This document shows, in pieces, positions 14,050 to 31,450 of a stretch of 35,130 nucleotides of DNA; positions within the stretch are counted from its first letter, which is position 1; every line of letters starts with the position of its first letter. The notes under the pieces were generated by a model. It was not told the DNA's origin. It worked only from the letters and a program-made list of their open reading frames with translations, and did no database searches. Both the position numbers and the translations under genes were made by a program. The DNA comes from Gammaproteobacteria bacterium. GTDB taxonomy: Bacteria > Pseudomonadota > Gammaproteobacteria > JABABF01. The stretch covers positions 1 through 35,130 of the forward strand of contig JABABF010000088.1 in assembly GCA_014238345.1 (NCBI GenBank), read 5' to 3'.

Positions 14050-14153
14050 CAGACCTTGCCTCCCCCTGTCCTGTTTTCACTATATGACTGCATAACGATA
14101 GTCCGCAAAAAGTGGGGAACCATTATTTATGCCCACCTATACCTGCGCCTGCG

Positions 14154-15866
14154 TCAATTATTAATCACAACCGGCGTGATCATTACGATGGTTTCCACCT
14201 CGGCCCAATTTTGGTTCTTGTTAATATCAAAGTCAGTATTTGCGGTCTTACCATAATTTCCTCGACGACGACGCAAACCGCTCAGCACCAAAGATTCCCC
14301 CGACTGCAACATGGCACGCTGGTTGAAAACATTTTCTGTCAGCGAAGGCAAGTTGACCTGGGAGCCGTTGCCAACATCAATAGCGGCACCAATCGTAGCT
14401 TCGCGCAATGTACCAGTCACCTGCAACACCACACGCCTACTGTCGAGTATATTCACTAGTGCATAGAAACTGACACCAGACTCAATTGTGCCTGGCTCAA
14501 ACACAACATTAGAGCCGAAACTATCAACATTGCGCGAGATCTCGGAAATATAAGAAAGCGTTTCGCTACGCTTCACCTCCACAGCCTGATGGTTGTACAC
14601 CAGGGCTCTAGGTGCCGTCTCTACACTGACCTCTCCTTGGGAACGCAAAGCGGTCAACACCGAACTGATGTAGTGCGAGCCATCTGCAGACCCTGAAATA
14701 TGCTCAGGCGTATTGCTACTAGCAATGGTTAATGCATCCCCAGCAAACGCCACACTGACATCCGAGCCCAGCAAGCGAGATTGCACTACTGACCAGTCCA
14801 CGCCGAAAGAATGTGCGTCGTTTAATGTCACCTCAATAACGCGAAACTCAATTATCATTTTGCGCTGCATGTCGGTATTCAGATCATTTATAAAACGTTC
14901 TACCGCCAATACTTTGGCAGCCGGAGCTGTAACAGAAATTGTCGCACGACTAATATACTGCTCTTGTGAACCTTCGCCGTCGAGGATGGCATCAACAGCA
15001 CTTTGAAGATCATCCCAGAATTCGCCGCCATTCTCTTCAAAGCCAACAAACTGGTTACTCGAACCAAAAGAGGCGCTGATACTGCCTCCACCGCCCGATT
15101 GCACCCCCGCATTACCACCGCCGCCGCCACTTGAACCAATATCGTAATCTTGGTCACCCTGCGGGTGCATCATGCGGAAAGAGCGAGTCAAATAAGCATG
15201 CCAATGGAGTGCTTCACCCTCGGCTTCTACTGTATAAGCATAGTCTGTCAGCTGTGTGACTCGATCCAGCATCTCTTGCACTGTACCTTCGAAATCCAGA
15301 GTAACGGGGCGCCCTGCGTCCAACCAGCTATCTCCGGACATCAACTGCTCCAGTTCACCAGCCAGCCTTTTGTTGCCAGCTTCTTTCTTGATCGCTACTC
15401 GCAATCCCTTCGCCTGCACTTGCTCGTCTGCTATACCATAGAGAATCAAGGGTGCGTCTTCGATTTGCAACATCACCTGATTCATGAGCCACTCCAACGG
15501 CAGATCCCGTGCATTAACCACTACGCGCTCTTGCAACCACGCCATTTGTGCATCGCGCGACACCCACTCAAAGGCGGTATAGGGCGAGTCATGGAAGCGC
15601 ACTAAAGGGCGCTCAGGGAACTGCGACTCACGCAATTGCTCCATATCATCTTTCAGGTAAAAGCGATGTTCATTAATCTGATTAGCGATATCACCACCAG
15701 ATAGTGATCTAATGATCCCACACCCAGATAACGGCATCAGCACTAATGCCAGTAGCCCCAGCACACTTAAACTTTGCCCACCGCTACTGATGATGCTTCG
15801 CACGACCCGTCCTCGCCCTACTAGCCATAGCCCAGCACTTGCCGCACTTGTCCTGTTTCTAATCAT
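14154..15866 (-). CDS. Type IVb pilus outer-membrane secretin, lipoprotein (R64 PilN / BfpB-like)
   Basis: The 570-aa ORF has GAGGA 5 nt upstream of the ATG and a lipobox LSG|C after a hydrophobic signal. A Gly-rich linker (GSSGGGGGNAGVQSGGGG) follows. The C-terminal secretin-domain pattern is VVLQVTGTLREA...QRAMLQSGESLVLSGL...VETIVMITPVVI. Confidence 0.8.
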   Translation of the reverse strand: MIRNRTSAASAGLWLVGRGRVVRSIISSGGQSLSVLGLLALVLMPLSGCGIIRSLSGGDIANQINEHRFYLKDDMEQLRESQFPERPLVRFHDSPYTAFEWVSRDAQMAWLQERVVVNARDLPLEWLMNQVMLQIEDAPLILYGIADEQVQAKGLRVAIKKEAGNKRLAGELEQLMSGDSWLDAGRPVTLDFEGTVQEMLDRVTQLTDYAYTVEAEGEALHWHAYLTRSFRMMHPQGDQDYDIGSSGGGGGNAGVQSGGGGSISASFGSSNQFVGFEENGGEFWDDLQSAVDAILDGEGSQEQYISRATISVTAPAAKVLAVERFINDLNTDMQRKMIIEFRVIEVTLNDAHSFGVDWSVVQSRLLGSDVSVAFAGDALTIASSNTPEHISGSADGSHYISSVLTALRSQGEVSVETAPRALVYNHQAVEVKRSETLSYISEISRNVDSFGSNVVFEPGTIESGVSFYALVNILDSRRVVLQVTGTLREATIGAAIDVGNGSQVNLPSLTENVFNQRAMLQSGESLVLSGLRRRRGNYGKTANTDFDINKNQNWAEVETIVMITPVVINN

Positions 15867-15946
15867 TGCATTCCTCGTTTGGGTCTGTAGAGTTTGCCTG
15901 CTAAAGCCACTCTATACCTGAGTTTTTTGTATCTGTGATCAGCGGT

Positions 15947-16618
15947 TTAGCGGTAGCGCTCCACCACTGTATCTAGAGAGTGCGGGGGATCTAAGATGCG
16001 CTTGGCCTGCAGAGCGTCGCCACAACTCACTGCACGCCCGGTATAGAGTCCCACAGTACTACCCGACTCCCGCAAATAGACCGGGAAGCCCAAGGTATCA
16101 AGGGTCGAATACAGATGCTGTGCACTAGCCATATCATCATAGACAGCTATACGCAGTGTCCATCGGTATTGATCTGCACCAGCCCCCGCCCGCTGACACT
16201 TGGCCTCTTCCCTGCGCATGGAAGCCGCAATTGCCGCCGCTCGTTTACGGGGATCAACAACACGTGCTTTTTTAGTCTGAGTTGCCGCGGATTTAGCAGC
16301 TTTCTTGGCAGCTTTCTTGGCAACTTTTGATTTTTTCGCTGAGGATTTAGTGGTTGCCTTAGCTGCGGCTGCTTTGTCCGTAACCAGCGGGGCTGGCTCT
16401 GTAATAGCGCCACCAGTTCGCGCCGAAAAATCAAATGATTCACATGAAGAAAGTAGTAGGAACACGGGCACCGCCATCAGCATCCCTAACGCCTTAAACG
16501 CCTTATCAGCCCCAGAACCAGAACCAGCACTAATAAGCGCCCTAGCTAATGCCCCTGAGTTCCCCGAACTCACCCCTAGCTGTTTAAATTCTGTCATTTT
16601 GTCTCTCGCCTTATTCAT
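15947..16618 (-). CDS. Lipoprotein with a Lys/Ala-rich basic linker and a C-terminal SPOR-like peptidoglycan-binding domain
   Basis: The 223-aa ORF has AGGA 8 nt upstream of the ATG and a lipobox LSS|C. It has a low-complexity stretch KKSKVAKKAAKKAAKSAATQTKKAR. The C-terminus WTLRIAVYDDMASAQHLYSTLDTLGFPVYLRESGSTVGLYTGRAVSCGDALQAKRIL fits the SPOR pattern (beta-alpha-beta-beta repeat, 'W.v.vg.f....A..l...L...G'). Confidence 0.7.
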   Translation of the reverse strand: MNKARDKMTEFKQLGVSSGNSGALARALISAGSGSGADKAFKALGMLMAVPVFLLLSSCESFDFSARTGGAITEPAPLVTDKAAAAKATTKSSAKKSKVAKKAAKKAAKSAATQTKKARVVDPRKRAAAIAASMRREEAKCQRAGAGADQYRWTLRIAVYDDMASAQHLYSTLDTLGFPVYLRESGSTVGLYTGRAVSCGDALQAKRILDPPHSLDTVVERYR

Positions 16619-16642
16619 GATTGTATTCCTTGCGCGGTATTG

Positions 16643-17695
16643 CTACTTTGACTTATCAGCATCAGCACCAGCACCAGCATCAGGACTCTTTGTTGGAGTG
16701 GGGTCGTCGCTACGCTGCACCGCTAGCGTAGCCAAACCGTATCGACGATCCAGTGCCTTGGACATACGATCCGCTTGACGCTTGCTCATATCACGACCGA
16801 CATAGAGACCGCTAAAAACTCGAGAGCCACTTTGAACCTGCGACAAATAGGAGGTGAAATTATCTGAGCGCAACCGCTTCAACATACGCTGAGCACCCGC
16901 ATCACTATCGTAGACCGCAACACGCACTGCCCACCGATTACGCCGACTACGTTTTGATGGTTGTGATTGAGCCTGCTCCGCCCGCTCAGCCCGCCGCCGC
17001 TCCGCACGCTCCCGCCGCTGGTCACGACGAGACAGCGGCGCCACATCAGTAGCAGCTGCCCTCCGACTAGTGCGCTGCTCACCTTGACATGCTGGCAGGG
17101 CTCGCTCTAGGCGCACAGGAGAAGTTGAGCAACGCAACGCAGTTTTGTCAACCTTGGTGTGCCGGTCAGCATCACGCACCACTACCACTCGATTCGGATA
17201 GTAAATGTCTGCCACCAACGGCCGGTTCATCAGCAACAGCTGTTGCAAGGCTTCCTCAAAGCAGTCAAAACGCAGCTTATAAGGCTGCACTATGCGGCGA
17301 TCTTCTTCTGGCTTCCATTCAAGACGCATACCGTAGTGACCCGCCAGCCGTTGCACTGTATGAGACAGATCCGAGGCAGCGACATCTAAACAGTGGAGAC
17401 CCCGTCGCGGCACCACATTGATCGTTTCTGGCGTATTGTCGTGCCCAGCACGAATAGCTGATCCGCTAATAGCGCGCGACCCACTATCACTAACGGAAGC
17501 AGCAAGTCCAGATGACCCAAGATCGGTGCTAGCACCTACTGGCACCTCAACATTCCACAACCCACCGCCAGAGCCCACGGAAGAGCAGGCACCGAGTGTC
17601 CAAACCATCGCGACAAGCGCCAGACTTGGCAACAGGCGCAAACGCGAAAAGCGTGAGCACACTATTCCTGTGTTTACTCCTATGCCTATTCCCAT
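16643..17695 (-). CDS. PilL/TcpQ-like pilus lipoprotein fused to a C-terminal SPOR-like domain
   Basis: The 350-aa ORF has AGGAG 9 nt upstream of the ATG and a lipobox LGA|C. The central segment LDVAASDLSHTVQRLAGHYGMRLEWKPE...FEEALQQLLLMNRPLVADIYYPNRVVVVRD has the STN/TcpQ-like pattern seen in PilL proteins. An Arg-rich linker (RRDQRRERAERRRAERAEQ) follows. The SPOR-like end is WAVRVAVYDSDAGAQRMLKRLRSDNFTSYLSQ...GLYVGRDMSKRQADRMSKAL. Confidence 0.65.
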   Translation of the reverse strand: MGIGIGVNTGIVCSRFSRLRLLPSLALVAMVWTLGACSSVGSGGGLWNVEVPVGASTDLGSSGLAASVSDSGSRAISGSAIRAGHDNTPETINVVPRRGLHCLDVAASDLSHTVQRLAGHYGMRLEWKPEEDRRIVQPYKLRFDCFEEALQQLLLMNRPLVADIYYPNRVVVVRDADRHTKVDKTALRCSTSPVRLERALPACQGEQRTSRRAAATDVAPLSRRDQRRERAERRRAERAEQAQSQPSKRSRRNRWAVRVAVYDSDAGAQRMLKRLRSDNFTSYLSQVQSGSRVFSGLYVGRDMSKRQADRMSKALDRRYGLATLAVQRSDDPTPTKSPDAGAGADADKSK

Positions 17696-17991: not shown

Positions 17992-19989
17992 TCAGCACGG
18001 GGCTGCCACGGTGGCAGGGTTGGGATCTGTGGGGCATTTCGGGCCAATACACTGCATACAACTCAATGCCCCCACCGTCGATGCCTCGATCACAACTGTC
18101 GTTGTATTCACGGCAGCACCCGCGCTATTGTCACGCGCCATATTCAACAAATCTGTCTGCAAGCTAGCGCTAGCACTACTGTCGCTGATTGCAGGACTGA
18201 GCATGCGAAACGGGTTGTGCATGCTAATCTCAGTGGGCCAGACGAAATCGACCACCGCATGTTCCCAACCCGGCACGGGCCCCAAGGAAGCCGCATAGGG
18301 AGTGCTAGCATAACTATAGCCCTGCTCATCCCACGGCCAGTTGCGCGCACCATGGGCGAGGACAAAATCCACATCGCGCAATTCTAGCCGCTCCACATAA
18401 ACATGGTCATGTCGCAATGCAGTTTTGGGGCCCAGCGATACGACTGGGGAGTTGTACAGATCAAGCGCACTGCGTTGCCGAATTAATGATGATGGATCAG
18501 TGGTCGGCAGACCACCGATCACCAGGTTGTCGGGATCGTCTAGATCACGACTGCCCGCAAAAGCAAAGCCAGCCACCTGAGCAGATACCTGATGCGAACC
18601 ACGGTAGCTCAGACCAGCTGGCTGCCCCAGCTCGCGCTGCCCCGCTACGATCGAAGTGCTATATTGCCGCAAATAATCCCACAGTTCCACGGTTATCGTC
18701 CCAGAACTAGTGGCGGCGGCAAGGATCGTGTCGGTAGAAGCCAAACTCACATGAGTACCCGGACGTATGACCAACACATTGTTGTGCCAATCAAATGATC
18801 TGGGGCTGTACGGAGCCACGCCATAAGGAAAATAATTCGTGCCGTAAGCCGAACCAGATGTACCGTAGTGAGCAACGCAACAGGCTCCCGCTTGATCGGC
18901 CTCGCCAGGACGTGCTGCCAATACCGCCAAACCCGCCGATGGAAAATGTGGATCCTCGGCTAGGCGGGCGAATTGCACTGCAGTCTCAACGACTAATGCC
19001 TGCGTGCTATCAATGCCGTAAGGGGCGAGACGCAATGCCCCATAGTACGGGCTAAGGATGGACTCGGGGGGGAGAGCAACCCGTGCGCCGGGGGCATCAA
19101 GACGCACATTGCCGCCGAGCACTAATAGACCTGCTCGCAACGCAGACAAAATATCTAATTCAGTCGGATTTGATGGCGGCTGCAACAACTCCTCTTCAGA
19201 GAGCGTATACGCCTCGTTACGGCGCTGCACCTCAATGCCAACATTAGAAAGCGTTGTGCAATTGCCACTGGTCAGAGCATTGGCATTTTGCACGCGTGAA
19301 GATGGCACTAACGCAGCAATGTAATGCGCCATGCAGGCAAATGGACGGGGCAATTCCATATACAACCGCAAGCCTTGCTGACCAGCAAAGTCCGCCAGCT
19401 CTTCCGCCGTGTTGATCGCTACATCAAGATCCGCATAGGAGGTACTGGAACTCGCCACTCGCCACGCAGATGCCCCGGTGGTTGGCACGGGTTGCAATCT
19501 CAGGGCACCACCAAGTACAGATTCGAGCGCCAAAGCCCTCCTGGTTCCTCCCAGCAGCTGATCCGCACTATCGGTTACATCCCCACGAATAATATCCAAT
19601 TCAGTGCGCCACTCTGTCGGCGGTATATATCCCTCCCGCAAGAGGCGCCGCACACCAGAGATATCAGCTAAGTCCATGTTGCCGTCGCCATTGCAATCGT
19701 CGTCGAGTTCTTCAATACCAGCAACCGTCGGTGTCACTAAGAACTCTTCGACACAGAAGTCTACTGGCCACACCTGATTATGAGTACGGTAGAGCAACGC
19801 CGCATCAACAATTTCGCGCAGCTCAGCGGCTGCACGGTCAGCCAAAGAGAATAGGTGAGCCTCGCGGCGGTGCTGTAGTTGTAGCGAGAAAAAGAGTAGT
19901 AGCACTGATAGCACCAGGGATAGCTCGAGCAATGTCACGCCGCGCACCGCCCACCGCTGGCGGATGCCTGTGCCTAGGGAGTCGGGCAT
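17992..19989 (-). CDS. Giant pilin-like protein 3 (class III signal peptide, 665 aa)
   Basis: GGGAG lies 6 nt upstream of ATG 19989. The leader is MPDSLGTGIRQRWAVRG|VTLLELSLVLSVLLLFF (Glu at +5). It shares the N-terminal module with the two upstream paralogs (AALLYRTHNQVWPVDFC...DCNGDGNMDLAD...LLREGYIP). The C-terminus is Cys-rich (LSCMQCIGPKCPTDPNPATVAAPC). The start overlaps the upstream gene by 16 nt. Confidence 0.8.
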   Translation of the reverse strand: MPDSLGTGIRQRWAVRGVTLLELSLVLSVLLLFFSLQLQHRREAHLFSLADRAAAELREIVDAALLYRTHNQVWPVDFCVEEFLVTPTVAGIEELDDDCNGDGNMDLADISGVRRLLREGYIPPTEWRTELDIIRGDVTDSADQLLGGTRRALALESVLGGALRLQPVPTTGASAWRVASSSTSYADLDVAINTAEELADFAGQQGLRLYMELPRPFACMAHYIAALVPSSRVQNANALTSGNCTTLSNVGIEVQRRNEAYTLSEEELLQPPSNPTELDILSALRAGLLVLGGNVRLDAPGARVALPPESILSPYYGALRLAPYGIDSTQALVVETAVQFARLAEDPHFPSAGLAVLAARPGEADQAGACCVAHYGTSGSAYGTNYFPYGVAPYSPRSFDWHNNVLVIRPGTHVSLASTDTILAAATSSGTITVELWDYLRQYSTSIVAGQRELGQPAGLSYRGSHQVSAQVAGFAFAGSRDLDDPDNLVIGGLPTTDPSSLIRQRSALDLYNSPVVSLGPKTALRHDHVYVERLELRDVDFVLAHGARNWPWDEQGYSYASTPYAASLGPVPGWEHAVVDFVWPTEISMHNPFRMLSPAISDSSASASLQTDLLNMARDNSAGAAVNTTTVVIEASTVGALSCMQCIGPKCPTDPNPATVAAPC

Positions 19990-22070
19990 CGCGGGCTCCC
20001 AGCAACACAGTTCAAGCTCTCCACTTGCTCTATGCCTCCATCAAGTGATGTGATAGCAGTCTGTCCAAATAGCCCATCGCGGCCATTGACAGTGAAATCC
20101 AAAGTGCTAATCTGCATGCCTGCCAAATTCATCGAGGCCTCATGCAACTCGAGATCCAGGCCGATGAGCCTTGGCACATAGGACAATCTCAGATTGTTGG
20201 TATGGAATTGTAGCTCGACCGCAGTAGACGGACTCAGAACAAAACCGCTGGGATAACCGCTGGGCACTATCCCACCAGGTGCGCCAGCACCCACCAATGG
20301 CACCCGCATAAAATCCCCTCGTTGTGCGGGCGATTGCAGTACCCCAGCAGAGCTGAGTGTCCCAGCGGGCGGATCGTAGTGCAGACCCTCGACCACAGTC
20401 AATTCATTCAACAAAATGCCATCCCCGGGATAACGATAGGCATCAGAGTCGGGCAAACCTGCGTCATCCTCGGAATCCATCACAAAGTACAAGGAGGCAG
20501 AAGAACTGAAACTGCCATAGAAATTGTGGCCGGGCATAATCGACATCCGCCCGCCATAAATGCGGATGGCTCCCACTTCATAATTGCGCACATTGTAGAG
20601 ACGCAAGCCCAATGAGTCCGACTGCTCCAGTGATGCGGCAGGGGACAGTGCTGCAATCGGGGTGCCGAGCTCGCTGACATGGGCGCGCCAACCAGCATGG
20701 CGGCTGGCACGCGCCGCATCGCCGACCGACAAAGTAATCGCTCGGTCGATAAAGGCTACATCACTTAGGGAGCTATCATCGTAGGCATAGGACAGCAAGT
20801 CGGCGCTGAGCAGGCCTATATGCGTACCGTCAAGGCGCTCAAAAGCCAACGAAGACAAATGCCGATGATCGCGTGTTGTCTGAGTAAAAGTGGATCGACT
20901 AGCATCGGCACCCCCGGGCACATAACCGGACATTATTGCCAAATGTCCTTCATCGACTCCGCGCAAGGTGACAATACCGCCGAGCGGTGCCGTGGGATGG
21001 GTAGTAGCCTTGGCAAATTGAATCATCGCATCGGTCGAGGCGACATCCTCAAGGGTAGCAACGGCAGCGCGCAAGCGCAATTCACCGGTATTCATCGCAT
21101 CAAGTAACATCGGGATACCAGCTCCCCCAGCACTCGTCAACCGCAGCTGCGGCGTGAATATCGTCTCGTAGCTCAGTTCCTCAACATCAGGCAAGGAAGT
21201 AGGTGGCTCCCAGCGCCGCAAATACACCTCGACTGCTAACTCGCGTGTTGCCAGACGGCAGCTCCCCAGATCCTCGGGGGGCACCGGGTGATAGACATCA
21301 GCAGCGTCCGGAACCCCCGTCACTAGCAACGGGGGATCTGGCTCATACTGGACACCAAACAGTGACTGCACCAACGTTGCGTTGGGAACCCGCTGAGAGA
21401 TATCGCGGGCAAAGCAACCATAAGGACCTTCGTCTCCTCGAGGCAAGATGTAGCGTATCCGGAGCCCAGGAGCATCCCCAGGATGATACGTCCCCGTCGA
21501 AGTAATGGTCAGCAACCGGCTATCCCCGGGTTCATAAATCTCCCAATAAGCTGTGGTGTGGTAGCGCCCATGCTCCGCGGGAAAAAGTGGAGCCTGAGGA
21601 GAGAGAAGCGTACTGAGCGCGGTTCTCTGTGCAGGAGCGATACGATGCACTGGCGACATGATAACCTGCGTATCAAAGAGTGTCTTGCCCCGAGCGAATT
21701 GCCCGATCCCCAAGGCACTGAGACCTTTATCTTTGAGATAACCTGAGGCAACTAGCTCCCTGAGGCCGTTAATATCCCTGAAGTCGCGCACAAGATCAGC
21801 ATTGCAGTCCGACCGCTCTCCCTCTATATAAGCGTTGTAAATACAATCATCGAGCGGCCAAACACCTTCGTGTATCTGGTAAGCCATGGCGGCATCAACC
21901 ATGCTCTGTATTTCGGTCGCCACTTGAGCAACGATCTGTTCATGAATTCTGCGCTGATCGTAGTCTAGATAAAGCGCTGAGAGGATGACAATCAACGAAA
22001 TTACGATTGACAACTCAATCAACGTCGCACCACGGCAACGCAATTGCCGCAAGTAACTACGGGCACACAT
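19974..22070 (-). CDS. Giant pilin-like protein 2 (class III signal peptide, 698 aa)
   Basis: The leader is MCARSYLRQLRCRG|ATLIELSIVISLIVIL. The shared module is AAMAYQIHEGVWPLDDC...DCNADLVRDFRD...LVASGYL. The C-terminus is LNCVAGSPRCPTP. The start overlaps the upstream gene by 14 nt. Confidence 0.8.
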   Translation of the reverse strand: MCARSYLRQLRCRGATLIELSIVISLIVILSALYLDYDQRRIHEQIVAQVATEIQSMVDAAMAYQIHEGVWPLDDCIYNAYIEGERSDCNADLVRDFRDINGLRELVASGYLKDKGLSALGIGQFARGKTLFDTQVIMSPVHRIAPAQRTALSTLLSPQAPLFPAEHGRYHTTAYWEIYEPGDSRLLTITSTGTYHPGDAPGLRIRYILPRGDEGPYGCFARDISQRVPNATLVQSLFGVQYEPDPPLLVTGVPDAADVYHPVPPEDLGSCRLATRELAVEVYLRRWEPPTSLPDVEELSYETIFTPQLRLTSAGGAGIPMLLDAMNTGELRLRAAVATLEDVASTDAMIQFAKATTHPTAPLGGIVTLRGVDEGHLAIMSGYVPGGADASRSTFTQTTRDHRHLSSLAFERLDGTHIGLLSADLLSYAYDDSSLSDVAFIDRAITLSVGDAARASRHAGWRAHVSELGTPIAALSPAASLEQSDSLGLRLYNVRNYEVGAIRIYGGRMSIMPGHNFYGSFSSSASLYFVMDSEDDAGLPDSDAYRYPGDGILLNELTVVEGLHYDPPAGTLSSAGVLQSPAQRGDFMRVPLVGAGAPGGIVPSGYPSGFVLSPSTAVELQFHTNNLRLSYVPRLIGLDLELHEASMNLAGMQISTLDFTVNGRDGLFGQTAITSLDGGIEQVESLNCVAGSPRCPTP

Positions 22071-24381
22071 AGCGAGGACTATCTCCGGGAGCCGGACAAC
22101 TCACCCCTTCCGATGAGGCAGTACAGGCCCAACAAGCCAAGTGGGAGATGCTCTGTGCAGTCAACATGCCAATTTGTAGGCCACGCACAATGTCTGTGCC
22201 CGAGCTGGCAACAGGATAGTTGCTCTCACCATACCACAACCCGAGCGGCATGTTGAACTCCAACGCAGCGGCTCCCAGCAATCGCAACGGTGTGCGACCG
22301 CCAGCCGTATTACCACCGAAGTCGATCACATCTAAGCTGGTGGTGCTGGTCGTAATTTTCCCCAAAACCACTGGCCAAGCACTGCGGTTCGTAGCCTCGG
22401 TCTCCTCTATGGTCACTTGGCGCTGGACACCACTGCTATGAGCATAGCTGTAAATATCCGTATCAACCGCAAGCCCTAGGTGCACCCGGGCAGCCCGTGG
22501 CGCACGAGCATCGCTGAAGTTGAAGTAGCTGTCGTAATCACCCACCGACAGCCCCGCAGCGCTGAATAAAGCACGTTGATGCAGACCAGGCTCACGCACC
22601 ACATCACTGGAATTACTCAGGCTCTCATCAGACCACAGCTCTAGGCTACCATCAACACCATCGCCAATCTCTACAAAACCGCCATCGTCGCTGAAGTACA
22701 CACTGAGCTTCGGCAATACCATTGCTGCATCCTCAGTCTGCGAGGCAATGGTGAACATCGCCCCAGCATCGGCTGGATTACCACAGGATGTAGACCCCGA
22801 TATCGACAACAACGCTGGTAGTGTGCAGAAATCCAGTAACTCTTGGATGCTGAGCGCAGCCGCTCCCGCCGGATACACCAGCGGGTTCTCATCCAAGAAC
22901 AGCTGATCGTGGAGTAAGCCCCTCAGCGACCCCAATAGACGCGGCGCACCGCTACTGTAGTAGCGAACCGACAGCCCTAGGGCAACGCGCGCATCTCCCT
23001 CCCTGGCATCGCGTATACGATCGGATGCCCCCGCTGGAACTGTTGCGGGATCCGGGAAAATAGCTGGACTCCCGCTAGGGTGATCGTAAATACCGCCGAG
23101 CAATAGAGCGGTGCGAGTCGCCTCGGTGCGCAAATCCCCTGCGCTACTGGCAGCAGCTGCGGCATCAATGACCAGCGACTGGGTGCTGTAGTCGCCTGGA
23201 TAAGCAAAATATGACTGCAGATTGCCCGTGCTAGTGTGGATCAATCCACCCGTAACAGGGTCTATAGTCACGGCGCGCAACGCGGGGCGGTCGTCCAAGC
23301 TGCTCTGACGCAACAGCGTGATGCCATCGTCGAAATAGCCCGCCGTCAGTCTTTCAACAATTTGCAGGCGGTCGGGTAAAGCCCGTAATTCAACACGGTT
23401 GCCGTAATCAGAATTGCTGCCAACAGTCTCCAGTGCAGCGACACCGAAGATCAGCGCGGGAGCAGGGCTGATATTGGCGGTTACTGAAGTTGACACTGCG
23501 GCACCGTCAACCGATATAGGGATAGCACTCCCAACTGAGAGAGAACTCGTAACGATCGGCACGGCACCATCAGTCGCTGTGCCAAGACGCTGGCCTTCCA
23601 CATTGATACGCACTGAGCCACCAGCCGCATCTAGATAGGGGCGCACCCGGAGCAACCCCGGTTGCGGGGCATCCAACACCACCCGCCGGTCAATAACGAG
23701 CCGGTCAGTAAACACGGTCGCTATATCCCTATCTACATCGGTAGGAAAAAGTTGTGCCAGCAGGATATCGTTATAACCACCAAACCGGACTATGCTGACC
23801 AGCCGCGTCTCCCCAGCTTGCTCCACAACCTGCGCTCCGGGTATGAGACGGGCGATGTAGCCAGCATAGCGGGAAATCGATGCCTGCACGATGGTCTCCA
23901 TACGCAGGCTATCCGATGTCAACACGGCGGCGAGACCACTCCGGGTAGATACCGCTGCACTGGCCACCGTCCATGGTTGTAGGGCGACCCACTCGCCACC
24001 GCGCGCTTGGTTTTCTATGTAGCGCGGCAAAGCAGGCAAGCGACCCGCTTCCACCAGAGCCGTCATACCGCTATAGTCCAAGTCATCGCTACGGCCATCG
24101 CCATTGCAGTCACGGCTACTGACTGCATGCAGGCGAGAGCAGCTATTCAGGGGCCACTCACCCATATGGTAACGATGCACCAGTGCCGCATTGAGTATTT
24201 GGCGCAGTTCCAAGCCATGTGCGATGGCATAATTGCGCGATTGGTCGCGCACTTTCTCCAAAGTTCCAATGGCCAGTGCGATTGCTAAAAACACTAATAA
24301 CACCGAGAGATCAATCAAGGTGATGCCGCGACAACGGCGCAACGGCGCGATATGCTGATGGGAGTTGAAAATAAAATTCAT
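22057..24381 (-). CDS. Giant pilin-like protein 1 (class III signal peptide; 774 aa from ATG 24381, 797 aa if GTG 24450 is used)
   Basis: The leader is MNFIFNSHQHIAPLRRCRG|ITLIDLSVLLVFLAIALAI (Asp at +5). The shared module is AALVHRYHMGEWPLNSC...DCNGDGRSDDLD...LVEAGRLP. The C-terminus is LACWACTASSEGVSCPAPGDSPRYVCP. ATG 24381 is preferred because a perfect TATAAT (24441-24436) lies inside the longer ORF extension. Confidence 0.8.
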   Translation of the reverse strand: MNFIFNSHQHIAPLRRCRGITLIDLSVLLVFLAIALAIGTLEKVRDQSRNYAIAHGLELRQILNAALVHRYHMGEWPLNSCSRLHAVSSRDCNGDGRSDDLDYSGMTALVEAGRLPALPRYIENQARGGEWVALQPWTVASAAVSTRSGLAAVLTSDSLRMETIVQASISRYAGYIARLIPGAQVVEQAGETRLVSIVRFGGYNDILLAQLFPTDVDRDIATVFTDRLVIDRRVVLDAPQPGLLRVRPYLDAAGGSVRINVEGQRLGTATDGAVPIVTSSLSVGSAIPISVDGAAVSTSVTANISPAPALIFGVAALETVGSNSDYGNRVELRALPDRLQIVERLTAGYFDDGITLLRQSSLDDRPALRAVTIDPVTGGLIHTSTGNLQSYFAYPGDYSTQSLVIDAAAAASSAGDLRTEATRTALLLGGIYDHPSGSPAIFPDPATVPAGASDRIRDAREGDARVALGLSVRYYSSGAPRLLGSLRGLLHDQLFLDENPLVYPAGAAALSIQELLDFCTLPALLSISGSTSCGNPADAGAMFTIASQTEDAAMVLPKLSVYFSDDGGFVEIGDGVDGSLELWSDESLSNSSDVVREPGLHQRALFSAAGLSVGDYDSYFNFSDARAPRAARVHLGLAVDTDIYSYAHSSGVQRQVTIEETEATNRSAWPVVLGKITTSTTSLDVIDFGGNTAGGRTPLRLLGAAALEFNMPLGLWYGESNYPVASSGTDIVRGLQIGMLTAQSISHLACWACTASSEGVSCPAPGDSPRYVCP

Positions 24382-24435
24382 GCGCTCAGAACAGCTCCGC
24401 ACAACAGCCAAACCTGAAGTTGTGTCTACAATGCG

Positions 24436-24507
24436 ATTATAACAGACCACATCCCTGTAAGCAGGCGTTTCATGGCACTAGTTTCATGGCACTTTTCACA
24501 GCACTAG
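24436..24507 (-). promoter_or_regulatory. Candidate activator-dependent internal promoter: perfect -10 TATAAT without a good -35, preceded by about three 14-bp direct repeats
   Basis: The minus-strand TATAAT is the reverse complement of 24436-24441. The plus-strand repeats are gtttcatggcacta (24467-24480), gtttcatggcactt (24481-24494) and ttcacagcactag (24495-24507, degenerate). They would span roughly -38 to -78 from a start site near 24429. Confidence 0.35.
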
Positions 24508-24530
24508 TAGGGCAAAAGGAATATCCCTAT

Positions 24531-25289
24531 TTAGGGCATCGAACCAACAGCCGCACAGGGGTCTAATGCTGCGCTACTCGCAAATGCTCCCAATCCCCCC
24601 AATGCAACGGCCTGCACCGCAGCTTCATAACCTTGCACCGAGCTATCACTGGCAATGGCGTTGGTAATTGGTGTACGGAGCGTCACGGTGGCGCGATTTA
24701 TACTTCTATCCTCTTGTAACGCCACCCGGTGTCTCCCTAGGTAAGGGAGAATCCGTCTACTAGCCTGGAACTCTGTCATATTTTCTAGCATCGGGAGTTG
24801 TACTAGTATATGGGTCAGTTGACGCTCCGCAGGACGTGTACCCACCTCCCCCGTAATCGCCAGCACTGAAGCCTCTAAACTCGGGGGGTATCGCTCATAG
24901 TAGACATCGTAGAAAGTACTGGTCAACGCATTTGCTCCGGCCTGCACATCGGTCAACGACAACGACAAGCTGGCGTGAGAGTTTAGCTGGCCATTGCTGT
25001 TGACCACCACCAAACGCCTGTCATCTGCACCTGACTCGAAAAGCTCCGTCAATCCCTGCTCAATCGCCCGACAATTCTGCCAATAGAATCGTTCTGCCCT
25101 AAGCGCTATATCCTCCATGATCACTAGACTTAGCTGACCCTGAGCATCCTTGCGGGAATCCTCACGCAGAAAAACCGCCGCAGAAGCGATGACCACGATC
25201 ACGGCCAGTGAGATAGATAGCTCAATCAGCGTAGTGGCGCGCTGGCGGCGATACCGCAAATCATAAATAGGGCGCGATTGCTGCGTCAT
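24531..25289 (-). CDS. Minor pilin-like protein (252 aa) with Ala at the -1 position
   Basis: The leader is MTQQSRPIYDLRYRRQRA|TTLIELSISLAVIVVIASAAVFL. It has Glu at +5 and the hydrophobic alpha1-N helix typical of type IV pilins. Confidence 0.75.
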   Translation of the reverse strand: MTQQSRPIYDLRYRRQRATTLIELSISLAVIVVIASAAVFLREDSRKDAQGQLSLVIMEDIALRAERFYWQNCRAIEQGLTELFESGADDRRLVVVNSNGQLNSHASLSLSLTDVQAGANALTSTFYDVYYERYPPSLEASVLAITGEVGTRPAERQLTHILVQLPMLENMTEFQASRRILPYLGRHRVALQEDRSINRATVTLRTPITNAIASDSSVQGYEAAVQAVALGGLGAFASSAALDPCAAVGSMP

Positions 25290-25467: not shown

Positions 25468-26274
25468 TCAAGCCACCAACAAGGCGGCGGCGATGCTAGC
25501 GAGCACCAACGGCACCGCCAAGCCCCCCCCCCGTAGCGGCCATCTGTCAGCTAACAACAACATGACCACTAGGCAAACCAGCCCGACCCAGCCGCCCCAA
25601 GCCCCTGCGGCAGCGGCCAGCGCCAGCAATTCCAGCTCTGGCCAGACACGATGCCGCCACCGCAGCCACAGCGCAACCAAGGCCACCGCGCCACCCGCCG
25701 CCCACAGCGCCACAGCGGCTGTAACAGGGTCGGACACGGCCGATAACAGGCCGAGCCACAGCGGCCACCAAGCAATGGCAGTCGGCAACCAGTCATGCTC
25801 CAACACCAAACACAGTGCAGCGAGCCAGCAACCAAGTGCCACCCACAGCATCAGTAGCACCACCAGCTCGCCGCCCACGCGCCAAGCGGCGAGAGAGAAT
25901 AGCACCACCGCCATCAATTCCAGCCATAGATAACGGGCGGGGATGCGTGCGCCACAGCCAGCACAACAGCCGCGCAACCAAAGATAACTCAGTAACGGGA
26001 TGTTGTGCCAAGCGGGAATCGGGCATTGGCAAGCTGGGCAATGCGAGCGCGGCACGGCTAGATTGTAGGGAGCAGAGCCACCAGGCAACTGCTCGGGAGC
26101 CACACCGCCTAACAGTGCCACACGACGCTCGGCCATCAATGGCAAGCGGTGCACCATCATATTGAGGAAACTCCCCGTGCTGGCACCTACCAGTATTGAC
26201 AGCATCGGGCCAAGCCATGGCACCGCCTCCAGCACAAGACGCAATTCGCCCAACCATCCCCACTCAATCATCAC
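25468..26274 (-). CDS. Prepilin peptidase (A24 family) homolog with an intact N-terminal CxxC...CxxC domain but no recognisable GxGD catalytic motif
   Basis: The 268-aa ORF has GSFLNMMVHRLP, then CPACQCPIPAWHNIPLLSYLWLRGCCAGCGARIPARY (collinear with P. aeruginosa PilD CPRCGHEIRPWENIPLVSYL..CSSC). It also has WLPT...PLWLGLL and LLALAAAAGAWGGW (PilD: GDFKLLAMLGAWGGW). No GD dipeptide occurs anywhere in the ORF. Confidence 0.75.
   Translation of the reverse strand: MMIEWGWLGELRLVLEAVPWLGPMLSILVGASTGSFLNMMVHRLPLMAERRVALLGGVAPEQLPGGSAPYNLAVPRSHCPACQCPIPAWHNIPLLSYLWLRGCCAGCGARIPARYLWLELMAVVLFSLAAWRVGGELVVLLMLWVALGCWLAALCLVLEHDWLPTAIAWWPLWLGLLSAVSDPVTAAVALWAAGGAVALVALWLRWRHRVWPELELLALAAAAGAWGGWVGLVCLVVMLLLADRWPLRGGGLAVPLVLASIAAALLVA
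25523..25532. repeat. C10 homopolymer (G10 on the coding strand) near the 3' end of the peptidase-like gene
   Basis: Direct read: aag-cccccccccc-gtagc. It encodes ...LRGGGLA..., about 22 codons before the stop. Confidence 0.95.
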
Positions 26275-26319: not shown

Positions 26320-26357
26320 AAAAAAAAGGGCATCTCTCCTCAACGGAGTAGATGCCC
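26320..26357 (-). terminator. Rho-independent terminator downstream of pilin B
   Basis: The minus strand reads GGGCATCTACTCC-gttga-GGAGAGATGCCC, a 12-bp GC-rich stem with one bulge. It is followed immediately by TTTTTTTT and lies about 90 nt after the pilin B stop. Confidence 0.8.
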
Positions 26358-26448: not shown

Positions 26449-27117
26449 TCAGAACGAGTAGAGGGCATCCACAGCGCTGAGCGTGGCACTATCCCCTGGA
26501 GGGGCGTAGGTGGCAGCCTGATACTGTGCAGTGGCGAGGTAGTTGAGACCCCCCGACGTTGCCATAGTGTTTTGCTCAGCTGCATTCGAAGCAATCGCTG
26601 CCGCTCCCAAGTCTAATGCATTGACTAATGGAGCCACGGCATAGCTAGGAACGCTATCGTGACGAATCACGATGGAGCGAGTGTTGAATGAAAACAACAC
26701 CACATCACCACCCCATGGATTCGCGCTTGCGAACCCAGCGCTGGAGCCAGTAGAGCGCGTTGCACCTGCACCAGCGGCAGCGGTGAAGCCTTGCGCCGCT
26801 GTGGCGAGACGTGAGTCACCCAGTGCATCAGTGATGAGAGCCGTGGCTGTGTCTGACACCGGGCACGAAGATGTGCCACAGTTCAGAAGGCCAGAGCCTG
26901 CTGGGCCAACGGCGCCGCTGATGCGGGCGATGGCTGATACGAGATTGGCACTAAGTGCCGCTGCCGCAGTGACGGTCTGGGAGCGCTGTACCTGCCTAAA
27001 GGAGATAAGCGCACCCGCTACGATCAGGGCAATGATGACCACAACGACCGATAATTCGATCAGTGTGGCGCCCTGCTGTTGCTGTTGCCCGCGAAGGGCT
27101 TGCAGTTTTTGGTTCAT
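26449..27117 (-). CDS. Type IVb pilin B (222 aa, 16-aa leader); candidate major subunit
   Basis: GGAG lies 9 nt upstream of the ATG. The leader is MNQKLQALRGQQQQQG|ATLIELSVVVVIIALIVAGALISF. There is one Cys pair (NCGTSSCP). It is paralogous to pilin A through to the C-terminus (ANPWGGDVVLFSFNTRSIVIRHDSVP.. versus ANPWGEDIELLSYNLVSIVVRHHGVP..). A strong terminator follows. Confidence 0.85.
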   Translation of the reverse strand: MNQKLQALRGQQQQQGATLIELSVVVVIIALIVAGALISFRQVQRSQTVTAAAALSANLVSAIARISGAVGPAGSGLLNCGTSSCPVSDTATALITDALGDSRLATAAQGFTAAAGAGATRSTGSSAGFASANPWGGDVVLFSFNTRSIVIRHDSVPSYAVAPLVNALDLGAAAIASNAAEQNTMATSGGLNYLATAQYQAATYAPPGDSATLSAVDALYSF

Positions 27118-27467
27118 TTGGAGTTACTCCGTTTGTTATTTGGTTTGATTGTGTTGACTGCTAGAAGGTTCTGCCGTTGAGGCCACCTCACTACCAGAGA
27201 CACGGACACATCCCCACTCTAAGGCATCAGCGCAGGCTGTGTCAACCCCCCCTCTACACTGGTAACAGCAGGGTTATCGACCCCCGCTGAGCCGTGGTGC
27301 CGCCTAGTGATTGAGCCAAGATAGCACTGATTGCCTAGTGCCAAAAGACACTGGCGTGGTCACCGATTGATCGAGCAAGGATCGGACATGCCTTAGCAGG
27401 CACTCATCCCAAAGGCTCATTTCCGGATTAGGGAATGCTGGATTGCGCTTGGCGTGAAATGGGCAGA

Positions 27468-27608
27468 CTATACCTTAAGCCTTAAGCGATTAGGGCGCCG
27501 CCAGTAAAATCGGCTGAGTGCCGAGGCGAGTAGCAAGGCAATCGTCACCACCACGATGGAGAACTCAACCAGAGTTCCTCGTGGCTACTCTAGTGATTTA
27601 GTGCTCAC
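27468..27608 (-). pseudogene. Decayed pilin N-terminal remnant (in-frame TAG before the processing site, truncated after the alpha1-N helix)
   Basis: The minus strand reads GTG AGC ACT AAA TCA CTA GAG TAG CCA CGA GGA ACT CTG GTT GAG TTC TCC ATC GTG GTG GTG ACG ATT GCC TTG CTA CTC GCC..., that is (M)STKSLE*PRG-TLVEFSIVVVTIALLLASALSRFYWRRPNRLRLKV*. It resembles RG|ATLIELSVVVVIIAL of the flanking pilins but lacks one residue. It is interrupted by a stop and ends after 37 codons. A 7-bp duplication (ccttaag x2) lies at 27473-27486. Confidence 0.6.
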
Positions 27609-27653
27609 CAGATCAATCGGGCAACAAAATAACGGCTCAGTTGACGAACTAGT

Positions 27654-28346
27654 TTAACGGCTCAGGAGCAAGTATAAGCCGTCTACAAAGCTGAAATTTT
27701 CATCGGGAGCGCTGATCGGACTATCGGCGAACAACTCATAATCCGAGCCTGAGGCAATGACAAAATCAGCGTTGTCTCTCAATGCCTCTGCCCCAGCAAT
27801 GTCAGTCGCCACTTGCGCTGCCCCCGTATCCAGTACATTCGCAAATCCCTGTAATGCATGAGTTGGCACCCCGTGGTGGCGCACCACTATAGACACCAGA
27901 TTATAGGATAGCAACTCTATATCCTCGCCCCAAGGGTTGGCACCTCTAAAGAGTGCTGGCGAAGCCAATCCTACTATATCACCCTCACTGGCGATGCGAA
28001 AAACCACATCATCTAAAAGATCGGCAACGGTCATCTCAAAATCATGGGCGAATGTCCAAATACCACTATTTGGTAAGAACTCAACATATACGCCAGCACC
28101 CACCAGCCCAGCACTACCGACCAGACTCTGTACCGCTGCAATAATCCTCGTGTTCTGCTCTACTGCAGATGCAATGGTTCTGGCTCGCTGTGCTTGGAGA
28201 AAAGACACCAACGCCCCCGCTATAATCAAAGCGATAATCACCACCACCACTGACAGTTCAATCAGTGTGGCACCGCGCCGACGTTGCCAACGTTGCTTGC
28301 CTTGATTGAGATCAAGTGATCGTTTAGGGGAAGTATAGACTCTCAT
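27654..28346 (-). CDS. Type IVb pilin A (230 aa, 25-aa leader), cysteine-free
   Basis: GGAGG lies 7 nt upstream of ATG 28346. The leader is MRVYTSPKRSLDLNQGKQRWQRRRG|ATLIELSVVVVIIALIIAGALVSF. There is no Cys anywhere in the ORF. Confidence 0.85.
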   Translation of the reverse strand: MRVYTSPKRSLDLNQGKQRWQRRRGATLIELSVVVVIIALIIAGALVSFLQAQRARTIASAVEQNTRIIAAVQSLVGSAGLVGAGVYVEFLPNSGIWTFAHDFEMTVADLLDDVVFRIASEGDIVGLASPALFRGANPWGEDIELLSYNLVSIVVRHHGVPTHALQGFANVLDTGAAQVATDIAGAEALRDNADFVIASGSDYELFADSPISAPDENFSFVDGLYLLLSR

Positions 28347-28531: not shown

Positions 28532-29569
28532 TCACAATGACTGCAAGTTCTGGGTATTAGTGTAGACAGCGAAGATCATCATGCCATAGCCTAAGCCGAC
28601 TACGGCAAAAAGTATCGCTTGCACGGGTTTAACCGTCAGTCTCACACGGTCGAGTACCGCCTCACCACTCTTGCGCGAGACACGTTGCATGGCATCCATA
28701 AAACCGCGGTGTTGAGCCAATAACTTCAACAGTGACATCTCGCTTTTGCCAAGGAATCCAACATCAATCACATCGGCAAGTGTGCCGCCCTCCTGCAGAC
28801 GGTTCATCATCTTGCGCAAGTACAACCGCGCCAATGGCGGGGAACTGTCGTGCATCAGGCGCAATACACTGCGCATCTCCATGCCTGACAACAGCACTAA
28901 TGATATCGATTCAACGGTCTTGGCTGCCGTATTTTGCCGGTACATGGAAAAGATCGGCAGCTGGTCTATGAACTGTCGACCAGGTCCTGCATAGCGCGTT
29001 AGGAACATACCGAATAGCACGATGACCGTAGTAGATGTGACGAAGAAAATCAGCGTGTGATGGACAAAAAAATCGCCAATATGGTAGACAATGCGACCGG
29101 GCAGAGTCCATTCCTCAATCGGCTTGATATGCAGAATCAGCGGATAGAACCGTATCCGCATCTGGGTGTACATGGTCGCCACAAGCGCTAAAAAGAGCAC
29201 GGGTGGCAACAGCTTGCCCAGTATTTCGCCTAATACACCGACCTCACTCTCCATGATATCGGCAATGCGTAAGCCATTGTCAACAAAATTGGGGGTTTGT
29301 TCGCCAGCGGCCAACGACCCGACCACTACTGGGTCGAATAATCCCTGCATACCTCGCGCAACTGGCTGACCTGCACGCAATGCCTCGTACATGCGCTTGG
29401 CCACCATCTGATCCACCGGATTTCCGACAGCACGAATGTTGATCAGAGCATCGCGTAACGGCACTCCCTCTTTGAGCAGGGAAAAGAAAGAGCGCACATA
29501 GTCCGACTGTTGTTTACGCCCAAATTGCAAGCGCAATACACCATCGTTTAAATCCTCAAAGAATGACAT
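28532..29569 (-). CDS. Pilus assembly platform protein (GspF/PilC family; R64 PilR / BfpE-like)
   Basis: The 345-aa ORF has AGGTG 5 nt upstream of the ATG. It has two T2SS-F-like repeats (LLKEGVPLRDAL...LRAGQPVARGM...SLAAGEQT and LLSGMEMRSVL...LQEGGTLADVI...SLLKLLAQHRG), each followed by hydrophobic TM segments. Confidence 0.8.
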   Translation of the reverse strand: MSFFEDLNDGVLRLQFGRKQQSDYVRSFFSLLKEGVPLRDALINIRAVGNPVDQMVAKRMYEALRAGQPVARGMQGLFDPVVVGSLAAGEQTPNFVDNGLRIADIMESEVGVLGEILGKLLPPVLFLALVATMYTQMRIRFYPLILHIKPIEEWTLPGRIVYHIGDFFVHHTLIFFVTSTTVIVLFGMFLTRYAGPGRQFIDQLPIFSMYRQNTAAKTVESISLVLLSGMEMRSVLRLMHDSSPPLARLYLRKMMNRLQEGGTLADVIDVGFLGKSEMSLLKLLAQHRGFMDAMQRVSRKSGEAVLDRVRLTVKPVQAILFAVVGLGYGMMIFAVYTNTQNLQSL

Positions 29570-29656
29570 CTAGACACCTAATCCGAATCGCCTAGAGCAG
29601 CCGGCAATGGGCTGGAGAGCATGGCTACAGTCAACATTAAGCAACATCAAGCAACA

Positions 29657-31450
29657 TCAAGATGCCGCCTGCTGTTGGCTGTCGGTCGATCCATCTGCGC
29701 TTTGACCTGAAGACGCTTGCTCTTCTTCCTTCTCCCGAGCTATGGCGGCATCCAAGGCCTCTTGGCGCAATTTGTAATCAAATTGCACTTGGGTCGAGGA
29801 GTCGAGCAGACCAATGGCGCGCTCAGCTACCAGAGGGTCTACTGCTCCGCAGAGAATATGACTCATAACATGATGGACAATAGGGTCCCAACCGCGCTCC
29901 ATCAAGTACCCGCGCCAGCCCATCTGATCGCGCTGACGAATAAAAGCACGACCATCATCATCGACCATTACCACCTCGGCAGCTAAGCGCCGTCCCGAGA
30001 TACCAGACCCTTCACACTGACTGCAACCAGTCCCCAAGAAGTACACCTCATTCTCATGCCCTTCAAAAATCTTTTTGTAACGGTTGCGGGTGTAAATGTC
30101 CAGGCGATCAACATATTTGCTCATTGGCACACGGCAGTTCTCGCAGCTCTGCGGCAACAGGCGCTGATTAATCAAACAGACGAGGAAATTGGGGTCGTAG
30201 ATCATCGATGCCTCAACACCGAGATCCTCAAGACGGGAGGGAATCGACAACACATTGGAGGAGTGCAATGTGGTCACGCACAATTTACCTGAAGTCGCGA
30301 GATCCTTGATCGCTTCCGCCGTGCTACGATCCTTGACCTCACCCAGCATATTGATATTGGTATCCCACCGGTTTAGTGAAGCACGCAGGGTATCCCAGCC
30401 ACTCTCTGCGACATGCATGGCGATCGGAACATGAGTTACATTCGGCAACATGCGCTCCACGGGTTCCTCTAGGGAGACAATCTTGTATTGCGGATCCACT
30501 GTCTCCAACAGGGCAGTCAGCGATGTGCTCTTGCCTGAACCCGTAGGGCCAGACATTACAATCACACCATAGGGGCGAGCCATGGCCTCTTTCATCAGCG
30601 AAATCTGCAAGGGGGAATAGCCCGTATTTTCAATCTTGATGCCACCAGTATCAGGACGCCAAATGCGCAAAAAGATATCAATACCACGCACATCGGGTGC
30701 CGTGCTAAGACGGATCGGCACAACCAACGACCCCATGCGAAAGTCGAGCGAACCATGCAATGGTTTATCCAGCATAAACTGCAATGAGCCGCGTTTGGCC
30801 TCGGCATTGAACATGTAGTTCCCCAGCGCGACCAGCTCCTCGCGACCCACTGTATCAAACAACAAGAGGCGGCCATCAATGCGAAACTTGATATTGGTCA
30901 ACTTCTCGCGCATCTCCATATGGATGTCCGAGGCTCCGCGACTGAGGGCGGCCTCAACAATGGCATGGAACAGGCGCTGCACATCAGTAGTCGTGTTACT
31001 GATCTGCGCCATCTCCTGTGCAGCCACATCAGCCGCAGCCGCTGTCTCGTCCGTCAGCCGCTCGCGCAAGTAACGCACGACATTCTGAGTGGCCGGACGC
31101 ACCACTGGCTGATTGCCCATACTGGCCAACAAGTTCTTGGCTGTCTGCACGCTCGGATGCGAAGGCTTAGAGGTGACCAACGTGGCTTTGTCTGCTAATA
31201 AACAGAGGAAGTCGGGCTGCTCTACAGCCCATTTGTAAAGCTGCCCGTGAGCACTAGTGACCGGACGCTGGTCAGGCAAATCTTTACGTGCTAAGATCGC
31301 AGGAACGCCCAATAATTCGGCCTGCTCTACGATGTAATCGGCCTGGGTGGTGCCCTCCTCTTGCTGGCTAGAATCGACAATGACGGTAGTGTCATCATCG
31401 CCCCCACCGAATAGACGGGAAAGCAATCCGCTTTTTTCTTCTTCAGCCAT
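29657..31450 (-). CDS. Pilus assembly ATPase (GspE/PilB superfamily; R64 PilQ / BfpD-like)
   Basis: The 597-aa ORF has GGGAGA 6 nt upstream of the ATG. Motifs seen: GASDIHMEM...IKFRIDG, Walker A SGPTGSGKST, Asp box NMLGEVKDRSTAE, His box VTTLHSSN, and a tetracysteine CENC...CSQC. Confidence 0.92.
   Translation of the reverse strand: MAEEEKSGLLSRLFGGGDDDTTVIVDSSQQEEGTTQADYIVEQAELLGVPAILARKDLPDQRPVTSAHGQLYKWAVEQPDFLCLLADKATLVTSKPSHPSVQTAKNLLASMGNQPVVRPATQNVVRYLRERLTDETAAAADVAAQEMAQISNTTTDVQRLFHAIVEAALSRGASDIHMEMREKLTNIKFRIDGRLLLFDTVGREELVALGNYMFNAEAKRGSLQFMLDKPLHGSLDFRMGSLVVPIRLSTAPDVRGIDIFLRIWRPDTGGIKIENTGYSPLQISLMKEAMARPYGVIVMSGPTGSGKSTSLTALLETVDPQYKIVSLEEPVERMLPNVTHVPIAMHVAESGWDTLRASLNRWDTNINMLGEVKDRSTAEAIKDLATSGKLCVTTLHSSNVLSIPSRLEDLGVEASMIYDPNFLVCLINQRLLPQSCENCRVPMSKYVDRLDIYTRNRYKKIFEGHENEVYFLGTGCSQCEGSGISGRRLAAEVVMVDDDGRAFIRQRDQMGWRGYLMERGWDPIVHHVMSHILCGAVDPLVAERAIGLLDSSTQVQFDYKLRQEALDAAIAREKEEEQASSGQSADGSTDSQQQAAS

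Follow-up and report, generated by a model that had tools for sequence, protein, structure and literature searches.

The stretch of DNA analysed here (hereafter the window; 35,130 nucleotides, contig JABABF010000088.1 of assembly GCA_014238345.1) stems from an uncultured marine gammaproteobacterium and carries a type IVb pilus gene cluster of ~20 kb, within which a gene related to pilD (25468..26274, minus strand) encodes a protein of 268 amino acids according to the list of open reading frames (ORFs) and its translation. Prepilin peptidases of the PilD type combine two activities: both members of a pair of aspartates are required for prepilin cleavage, while zinc and a four-cysteine domain are required for methylation and are dispensable for cleavage (PMC3584216; PMC10191384). 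An earlier note on this DNA had suggested that the product of the gene lacks both catalytic Asp motifs. The comparisons described below confirm, at the level of the sequence, that it is a PilD paralogue devoid of both catalytic aspartates, which does not qualify as an A24 peptidase by the tests that define this family and is predicted to be peptidase-dead. We compared the genome to which the window belongs (G000) with a complete 1.7 Mb genome of the same genus (G001), with single-contig genomes of ~2 Mb from two other genera of the family (G002 and G003), and with a genome from the sister family (G004).

The pilD-like gene and its pilus cluster

The ORF opens with a GTG codon, and the ATG that directly follows it as the next codon (26271) is the probable start; a database protein that is 99% identical begins at this second-codon methionine. 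The N-terminal half of the protein is PilD-like and carries the four cysteines, as the earlier note had read it by eye. Its A24_N_bact domain, the zinc-finger or methylase domain (residues 28-132; 25879..26193, minus strand), is intact and scores 95-98 bits against PF06750; the match of the protein (2.2e-27, 95.4 bits) spans nearly the full profile and passes the gathering score of 23 bits. Using domain-specific hidden Markov models (HMMs) that we trained on 70 canonical PilDs and tested on 113 held-out ones, this N-domain reaches 115 bits, a value at the 14th percentile of the held-out proteins. The zinc ligands C79, C82, C104 and C107 (25954..26040, minus strand) were located by alignment and form two CxxC pairs. 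A glycine (G102) stands ahead of the third cysteine, followed at residue 103 by a cysteine where PilD has a basic residue; the corresponding residue of the G001 orthologue is Arg, and the pair of orthologues closest to the window protein has either Arg or His there.

The membrane half (residues 136-268; 25471..25869, minus strand) is a degenerate A24 domain in which the helical scaffold is retained and the catalytic motifs are gone. PF01478 gave no match to the protein even at E<=1 (gathering score 26.5 bits), a scan of the protein with NCBIfam models gave none either, and the C-domain scores 7.9 bits with our HMM versus a minimum of 86 bits among canonical PilDs. We placed the catalytic columns with MAFFT alignments and with a profile HMM of our own built from 90 canonical PilDs, in which the relevant positions have high posterior probability; all of these agree. 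The segment LCLVLEHDWLPT aligns with the canonical consensus l-i-D-l-d-t-q-l-l-P-D such that the counterpart of the first catalytic aspartate is Val157 (codon 25804..25806, minus strand), Asp161 lies four columns downstream of it, and a threonine replaces the aspartate of the LLPD motif. In the orthologues, the column of the first aspartate holds Ala, His or Arg. The second motif is missing altogether: the G-x-G-D-F stretch corresponds to a gap of five residues after L217, at the L217/A218 junction (25621..25626, minus strand), and the spacing from WLGLL to GAWGGW is reduced to 46 residues from the 52-53 found in canonical sequences. The late PFGP motif has been lost as well. Only three aspartates (161, 182 and 243) are left in the whole protein, none of them within a GD dipeptide. 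The changes around the two motifs had been noticed in the earlier note, which had allowed for D161 and D243 to fall into the catalytic columns in a proper profile alignment; neither of them does. The pair of aspartates has been described as universally conserved and critical in prepilin peptidases (PMC10191384).

About 22 codons ahead of the stop codon, a run of ten G residues on the coding strand (25523..25532, minus strand) encodes the residues RGGG. Two G/C homopolymers of 10 nucleotides are present in the 35 kb (25523-25532 and 9232-9241) where 0.03 would be expected, and the run in the pilD-like gene is absent from the G001 orthologue. We considered a sequencing frameshift at this position and rejected it, because the frame downstream of the run matches that of the orthologues (the C-terminus aligns with those of P0003 and P0004).

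An AlphaFold2 model built from an alignment of 121 sequences (pLDDT 93.9, pTM 0.90) comprises seven long helices and the zinc domain. Among solved structures, the best match of its C-terminal half is the preflagellin peptidase FlaK (3s0x_B; Z 7.2, rmsd 3.7 A over 122 residues, against residues 138-266), which hardly exceeds the Z of 6.8 of the unrelated helical bundles that follow. A Foldseek comparison of the model with the PDB returned only noise, and a profile search of PDB sequences found no match.

The pilus cluster lies wholly on the minus strand, at about 11980-32414, and is flanked by fabD-fabG at one end and by an SDR-P450 gene pair at the other. It begins with a gene for a 308-aa protein, followed by the T2SSE assembly ATPase and the T2SSF platform protein (28532..31450, minus strand; domain matches) and by two paralogous major pilins, A and B (26449..28346, minus strand), which are recognized by N_methyl (PF07963) and by their N-termini with class III signal peptides (G/ATLIE, the slash marking the cleavage site). 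The pilD-like gene comes next. Downstream of it are a 252-aa minor pilin and three giant pilin-like proteins of 797, 698 and 665 aa (17992..25289, minus strand; synteny with G001); these and the two major pilins are the presumed substrates for pilin processing. The outer-membrane part completes the cluster and consists of a TcpQ/SPOR-like protein, a 223-aa protein, a type IVb secretin of the PilN family and a 689-aa protein (11980..17695, minus strand). The pilD-like gene is hence embedded in a type IVb context comprising T2SSE, T2SSF, class III pilins, a large minor pilin and a PilN/TcpQ-type secretin module. To judge from known type IVb clusters, a dedicated peptidase might be expected at such a place.

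Pilin B and the pilD-like gene are separated by a predicted intrinsic terminator with a GC-rich hairpin of 12-13 bp followed by U8 (26320..26357, minus strand; folding energy -24.8 kcal/mol, z = -3.95), which a simple consensus scan did not pick up. The two diverged major-pilin paralogues of G000 both hit the same ORF by tblastn in G001, which has a single major pilin gene (L016:18159-18794). The nearest relatives of the platform protein and the ATPase (in G056, G119 and G359; at most 29% and 51% identical) have no PilD homologue within the 8-28 kb around them, and they are therefore uninformative about the ancestral state at this position.

The earlier note was also right that the GC content of the pilD-like gene (0.631) exceeds that of the adjacent pilus genes (0.50-0.59). 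At fourfold sites it amounts to 0.675, compared with 0.46-0.63 across the cluster and with 0.64-0.71 in the flanking core genes of G000, where every gene of the pilus cluster except the pilD-like one lies below the flanking core genes. The orthologous cluster of G001 (L016 and L017) equals the core genes in fourfold-site GC (0.65-0.82). We rejected high GC as a mark of a separate origin of the gene, since the contrast exists in G000 and not in G001 and since the divergence of the gene between these two genomes is like that of its neighbours.

Orthologues and the canonical PilD of the same genomes

The G001 orthologue is 67% identical and resides in the same cluster, with the gene order conserved; the orthologues of G002 and G003 are 40-44% identical and carry the same lesions. 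In all three genera the SDR-P450 pair adjoins the pilD-like gene, and this shared position establishes the orthology of the dead gene within the family independently of any tree. In a quick maximum-likelihood (ML) tree, the family orthologues and the metagenomic sequences P0121, P0176 and P0178 form a dead clade apart from 86 other PilDs (SH-aLRT 97), and the canonical PilDs of the family form a separate group. When we searched 5.8 billion proteins, only three close relatives contained PF06750 without PF01478; a few weaker matches of this kind were also listed, and the remaining near matches are ordinary PilDs of at most 41% identity. Of the relatives that bear the aspartates, P0115 is the closest. 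The dead-clade alignment, used as a profile against genome contigs, retrieved G002 and, for the most part, ordinary PilDs from Pseudomonas and Betaproteobacteria. Within the order, the DNA pattern for the RGxAxCCG sequence seen at the third cysteine of some dead paralogues occurs only in G002 and G003; across 401 genomes of the class it gave one match (G048), which is probably due to chance.

The ratio of nonsynonymous to synonymous substitutions (dN/dS) between G000 and G001, calculated by the NG86 method and approximate at dS > 1, is 0.20 for the whole gene, 0.15 for the zinc loop and 0.23 for the membrane half, with a dS of ~1.2. The neighbouring cluster genes have values of 0.10-0.33, and fabD/fabG 0.13. 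At least seven lineages have kept the reading frame open, at dS above 1, and ~40 of the ~63 invariant columns of a five-sequence alignment fall into the zinc domain. The pattern of substitution indicates that the gene is under purifying selection and is not decaying.

In G002 and G003, the dead gene has outlived its pilus. Both genomes lack the T2SSE ATPase of the cluster and hold only the three T2SSEs that are common to all four genomes of the family; no homologue of the 689-aa protein was found in either, and the giant pilin gives only weak matches there, confined to the N-terminal pilin helix and located near another pilus or T2SS system. The orphan gene is positioned between an ABC-2 transporter pair and the SDR-P450 pair, with no room for remnants of the cluster. 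The retention of the gene in these two genera without the cluster makes it unlikely that it serves this pilus alone, for instance as a scaffold of its machine. The ABC ATPase and ABC-2 permease genes lie directly upstream of the orphan gene on the same strand (L006:1-1433 in G003, with a gap of ~40 nt; L009:2294-3744 in G002), an arrangement that may reflect co-transcription or an accident of rearrangement; the orthologous ABC-2 permease is located elsewhere in the genomes of G000 and G001.

Each of the four genomes of the family contains exactly one match to PF01478, and in each case this is a canonical PilD with both aspartates. That of the window's genome is encoded on another contig (G000:C241:18346-19218), has the motifs IDLEHQILPD and GMGYGDFK, and adjoins a T2SSF platform (PilC-like) gene; a 209-aa ORF beside it is one that we take to be coaE-like. 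The earlier note had raised the possibility of a peptidase encoded elsewhere, and this gene answers to it; its presence is compatible with an inactive peptidase in the pilus cluster. The N-terminal half of these canonical PilDs departs from the usual pattern. In G000 and G001, AVPMT replaces the GSFLN of nearly all PilDs, and ELIP stands for NIP and RLRRxEP for IxxRYP, and the G002 protein is similar. In G003 (C1:~1525098-1525775; L020:1366-2043, minus strand), the four-Cys loop has been lost in frame, so that PF06750 no longer matches; the PF01478 score is 92.8 bits.

The domain HMMs put numbers to this divergence. The canonical PilDs of G000-G002 score 63-70 bits with the N-domain model and 197-212 bits with the C-domain model, and that of G003 scores 9 and 212 bits, compared with medians of 132 and 192 bits and minima of 87 and 86 bits among the held-out canonical PilDs. 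The dead paralogues have the opposite profile, with 102-123 bits for the N-domain and -4 to 33 bits for the C-domain. Both domains are normal in the single PilD of G004 (113 and 169 bits). As a check with Pfam, we ran PF06750 across the class, with each family represented by one genome. The canonical PilDs of the family reach 70.3, 70.3 and 78.3 bits, with no match for the fourth, versus a median of ~112 bits for the 52 matches from other families, only two of which are lower; one of these 52 comes from an unpublished genome (G043) and is not needed for the conclusion. The range for the dead paralogues is 90-101 bits. In the window's genus, the canonical PilD has kept its four cysteines, and its N-domain has a dN/dS of 0.22 versus 0.11 for the C-domain. 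Elsewhere among 60 relatives, two PF06750 matches in one genome were found only in G053 (C41:2429-2680 and C48:835-1167; 119 and 114 bits), which may possess two intact PilD paralogues.

Collectively, the canonical PilD of the family shows wear that mirrors that of the dead paralogue: its peptidase half is intact, and its methylase half is diverged or deleted. From this reciprocal wear of the two genes, the activities of PilD appear to be under partition between them, a partition that appears, from the sequences at hand, to be complete in G003 and partial in the window's genus.

A possible division of PilD activities between two genes

We consider it most probable, with a probability of roughly 0.6, that the protein is a protease-dead paralogue kept for the function of its zinc domain, most likely pilin N-methylation, and that a distant PilD performs the cleavage. 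Among the explanations listed in the earlier note, that of an inactive peptidase retained for another role, for example N-methylation, is the one best supported by our data: the gene is maintained in three genera, dN/dS is ~0.2 in both halves, and the zinc or methylase domain scores within the canonical range. Prepilins of the type IVb cluster would be cut after Gly-1 by the single canonical PilD, at sites such as G/ATLIE, G/ITLID and similar ones. The dead paralogue would then supply the zinc-domain function, most likely by methylating the newly formed N-terminus, and its retained membrane scaffold would hold the N-terminal helix of the pilin. The N-methylation of mature pilins, for which PilD requires its zinc domain, is known to depend on S-adenosylmethionine (PMC3584216). 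In the likely history of the two genes, a bifunctional peptidase borne by the cluster would first have lost its protease site, and the methylase domain of the resident PilD would then have relaxed; two genera would subsequently have dropped the pilus cluster and retained the paralogue, since the zinc-domain function had come to depend on it.

A wider proposal, which we advance more tentatively and would rate somewhat below an even chance, is that the activities of PilD have been split in this family by complementary degeneration after a duplication or an acquisition. The paralogue would have become a dedicated, stand-alone N-methyltransferase for all type IV filament systems of the cell, and the housekeeping PilD would be turning into a pure peptidase, a state that it would already have reached in the genus of G003. 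If true, such a split would explain how the paralogue outlived its pilus cluster, and it would provide a natural separation-of-function system in which the purpose of pilin N-methylation can be addressed.

Several points weigh against a role in methylation. A glycine and a basic residue beside the third cysteine are reported to have a part in methylation (Pepe and Lory, 1998, cited in PMC3584216), and residue 103 of the window protein is a cysteine and not basic. The third cysteine itself is displaced (RGxAxCCG; AxCC) in G002, in G003 and in the three metagenomic relatives. The methyltransferase site of PilD is unmapped, and the intactness of the methylase domain is judged from conservation alone. 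Work cited in PMC3584216 holds that methylation is not needed for pilus assembly in P. aeruginosa, which leaves the selective value of the paralogue unclear. The canonical PilD of the window's genus may still methylate, and the paralogue would then be redundant for this function. On the technical side, long-branch attraction could make the dead sequences group more strongly in the tree than they should, and the 113 held-out PilDs were gathered by similarity to the dead clade, a procedure that may favour proteins with resembling N-domains and for which the Pfam check is the less biased control.

The alternative that survives best is a pseudo-peptidase without enzymatic activity of any kind, which would bind the class III signal peptide or the pilin helix in its membrane groove and control, as a chaperone, gatekeeper or scaffold, whether pilins are handed over to type IV filament machines or held back from them. 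Dead enzymes retained as binders are common among other protease families, and features of the membrane half speak for this reading: it is constrained (dN/dS 0.23), it folds confidently in the structural model, and it retains the non-catalytic PilD motifs LWxGLL and AxGAWxGW. We nevertheless regard this alternative as unlikely. Conservation is strongest in the cytoplasmic zinc domain, which a pure helix binder does not obviously need, and it would remain unexplained why the methylase domain of the canonical PilDs has decayed reciprocally.

It is considerably less probable still that the gene is a functionless, decaying relic of a peptidase once dedicated to the cluster. The loss of the catalytic residues, of the PFGP motif and of ~20 C-terminal residues would fit such a relic, as would the variation in the details of the second-site lesions among the genera and the run of ten G residues at the 3' end. 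Decay is difficult to reconcile, however, with a frame that remains uninterrupted in seven or more lineages at dS > 1, with a dN/dS of 0.2 in both halves, with an N-domain that scores as high as that of working PilDs, and with the survival of the gene in two streamlined genomes (~2 Mb) that have lost the entire pilus cluster. An active peptidase that employs non-canonical acidic residues (E159 or D161 together with E213/E215), akin to the suggestion in the earlier note that glutamates of a PELE motif replace the aspartates, is the least probable of all: E159 is invariant in five family members, D161 is kept in the genus one helical turn past the lost aspartate, and the gene sits in a pilus cluster where a dedicated peptidase might be expected, but in relatives of the dead clade E159 is replaced by Q, K, R or D, D161 by Q, A or S, and E215 by Q, S or G, E213 varies across this clade too, the entire GxGD turn is deleted, and the C-domain profile score is ~8 bits for a type of enzyme in which the two aspartates are held to be indispensable.

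If the dead paralogue is indeed kept for methylation, a PilD relative with only its methylase half intact is a natural tool for the genetic separation of the two activities, especially when it is paired within one genus with a PilD reduced to its peptidase half. The removal or addition of one gene should then alter methylation and leave cleavage untouched, and the same pair of genes could help to locate the unmapped methyltransferase site. There is also a consequence for genome annotation: such genes are routinely labelled 'prepilin peptidase', and a pilus cluster that contains one would be credited, wrongly, with self-sufficiency in pilin processing.

Comparison with known systems

Losses of the active site are not confined to the family studied here. 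Fourteen of the 260 PilD-like proteins that we gathered are full-length, fall outside the family clade and miss one or both aspartates. One of them, P0156 (WP_279720682.1, Chromobacterium haemolyticum), is annotated as a 'prepilin peptidase' and has Ala and Val in the catalytic Asp columns. Of the 30 clusters that lie nearest in the ESM Atlas, 26 (proteins of 239-264 aa from Verrucomicrobiota, Rifleibacteriota and Actinomycetota) have PF06750 in 100% of their members with no PF01478 listed, which makes them leads; such full-length PF06750-only proteins in other phyla are probably independent losses. Loss of the active site seems to be recurrent and to go unflagged by annotation, and peptidase-dead PilD paralogues are probably not rare. 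Our literature search found no paper describing one. What sets the present locus apart is the contrast among genera between a copy within the pilus cluster and an orphan copy, together with a complementary decay of the partner PilD that differs in degree from genus to genus.

The closest known counterpart of the window protein is PilD/XcpA of Pseudomonas aeruginosa (GspO, PulO, TcpJ, BfpP; MEROPS A24A), with which it shares the N-terminal transmembrane helix, the zinc domain with four cysteines, the polytopic membrane domain, the GSFLN, RLP, NIPLLS and RG motifs, LWxGLL and GAWxGW, a similar length class and the placement of the gene in a type IV pilus cluster. Unlike PilD, it has a valine in place of the first aspartate, has lost GxGD(F) by deletion as well as LLPD and PFGP, and contains no detectable PF01478 domain; it is ~20 residues shorter at the C-terminus, has seven predicted helices in place of eight, and coexists with a canonical PilD. 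FlaK (PDB 3S0X), a GxGD membrane aspartic protease of solved structure, differs from the window protein by having both aspartates and no zinc domain. TadV, CpaA and FppA represent the opposite case, a peptidase domain without a methylase domain, an architecture that is well known (PMC10191384). Their existence shows the halves of PilD to be separable modules, and it is this TadV-like type that the canonical PilD of G003 has become through the deletion of its four-Cys loop.

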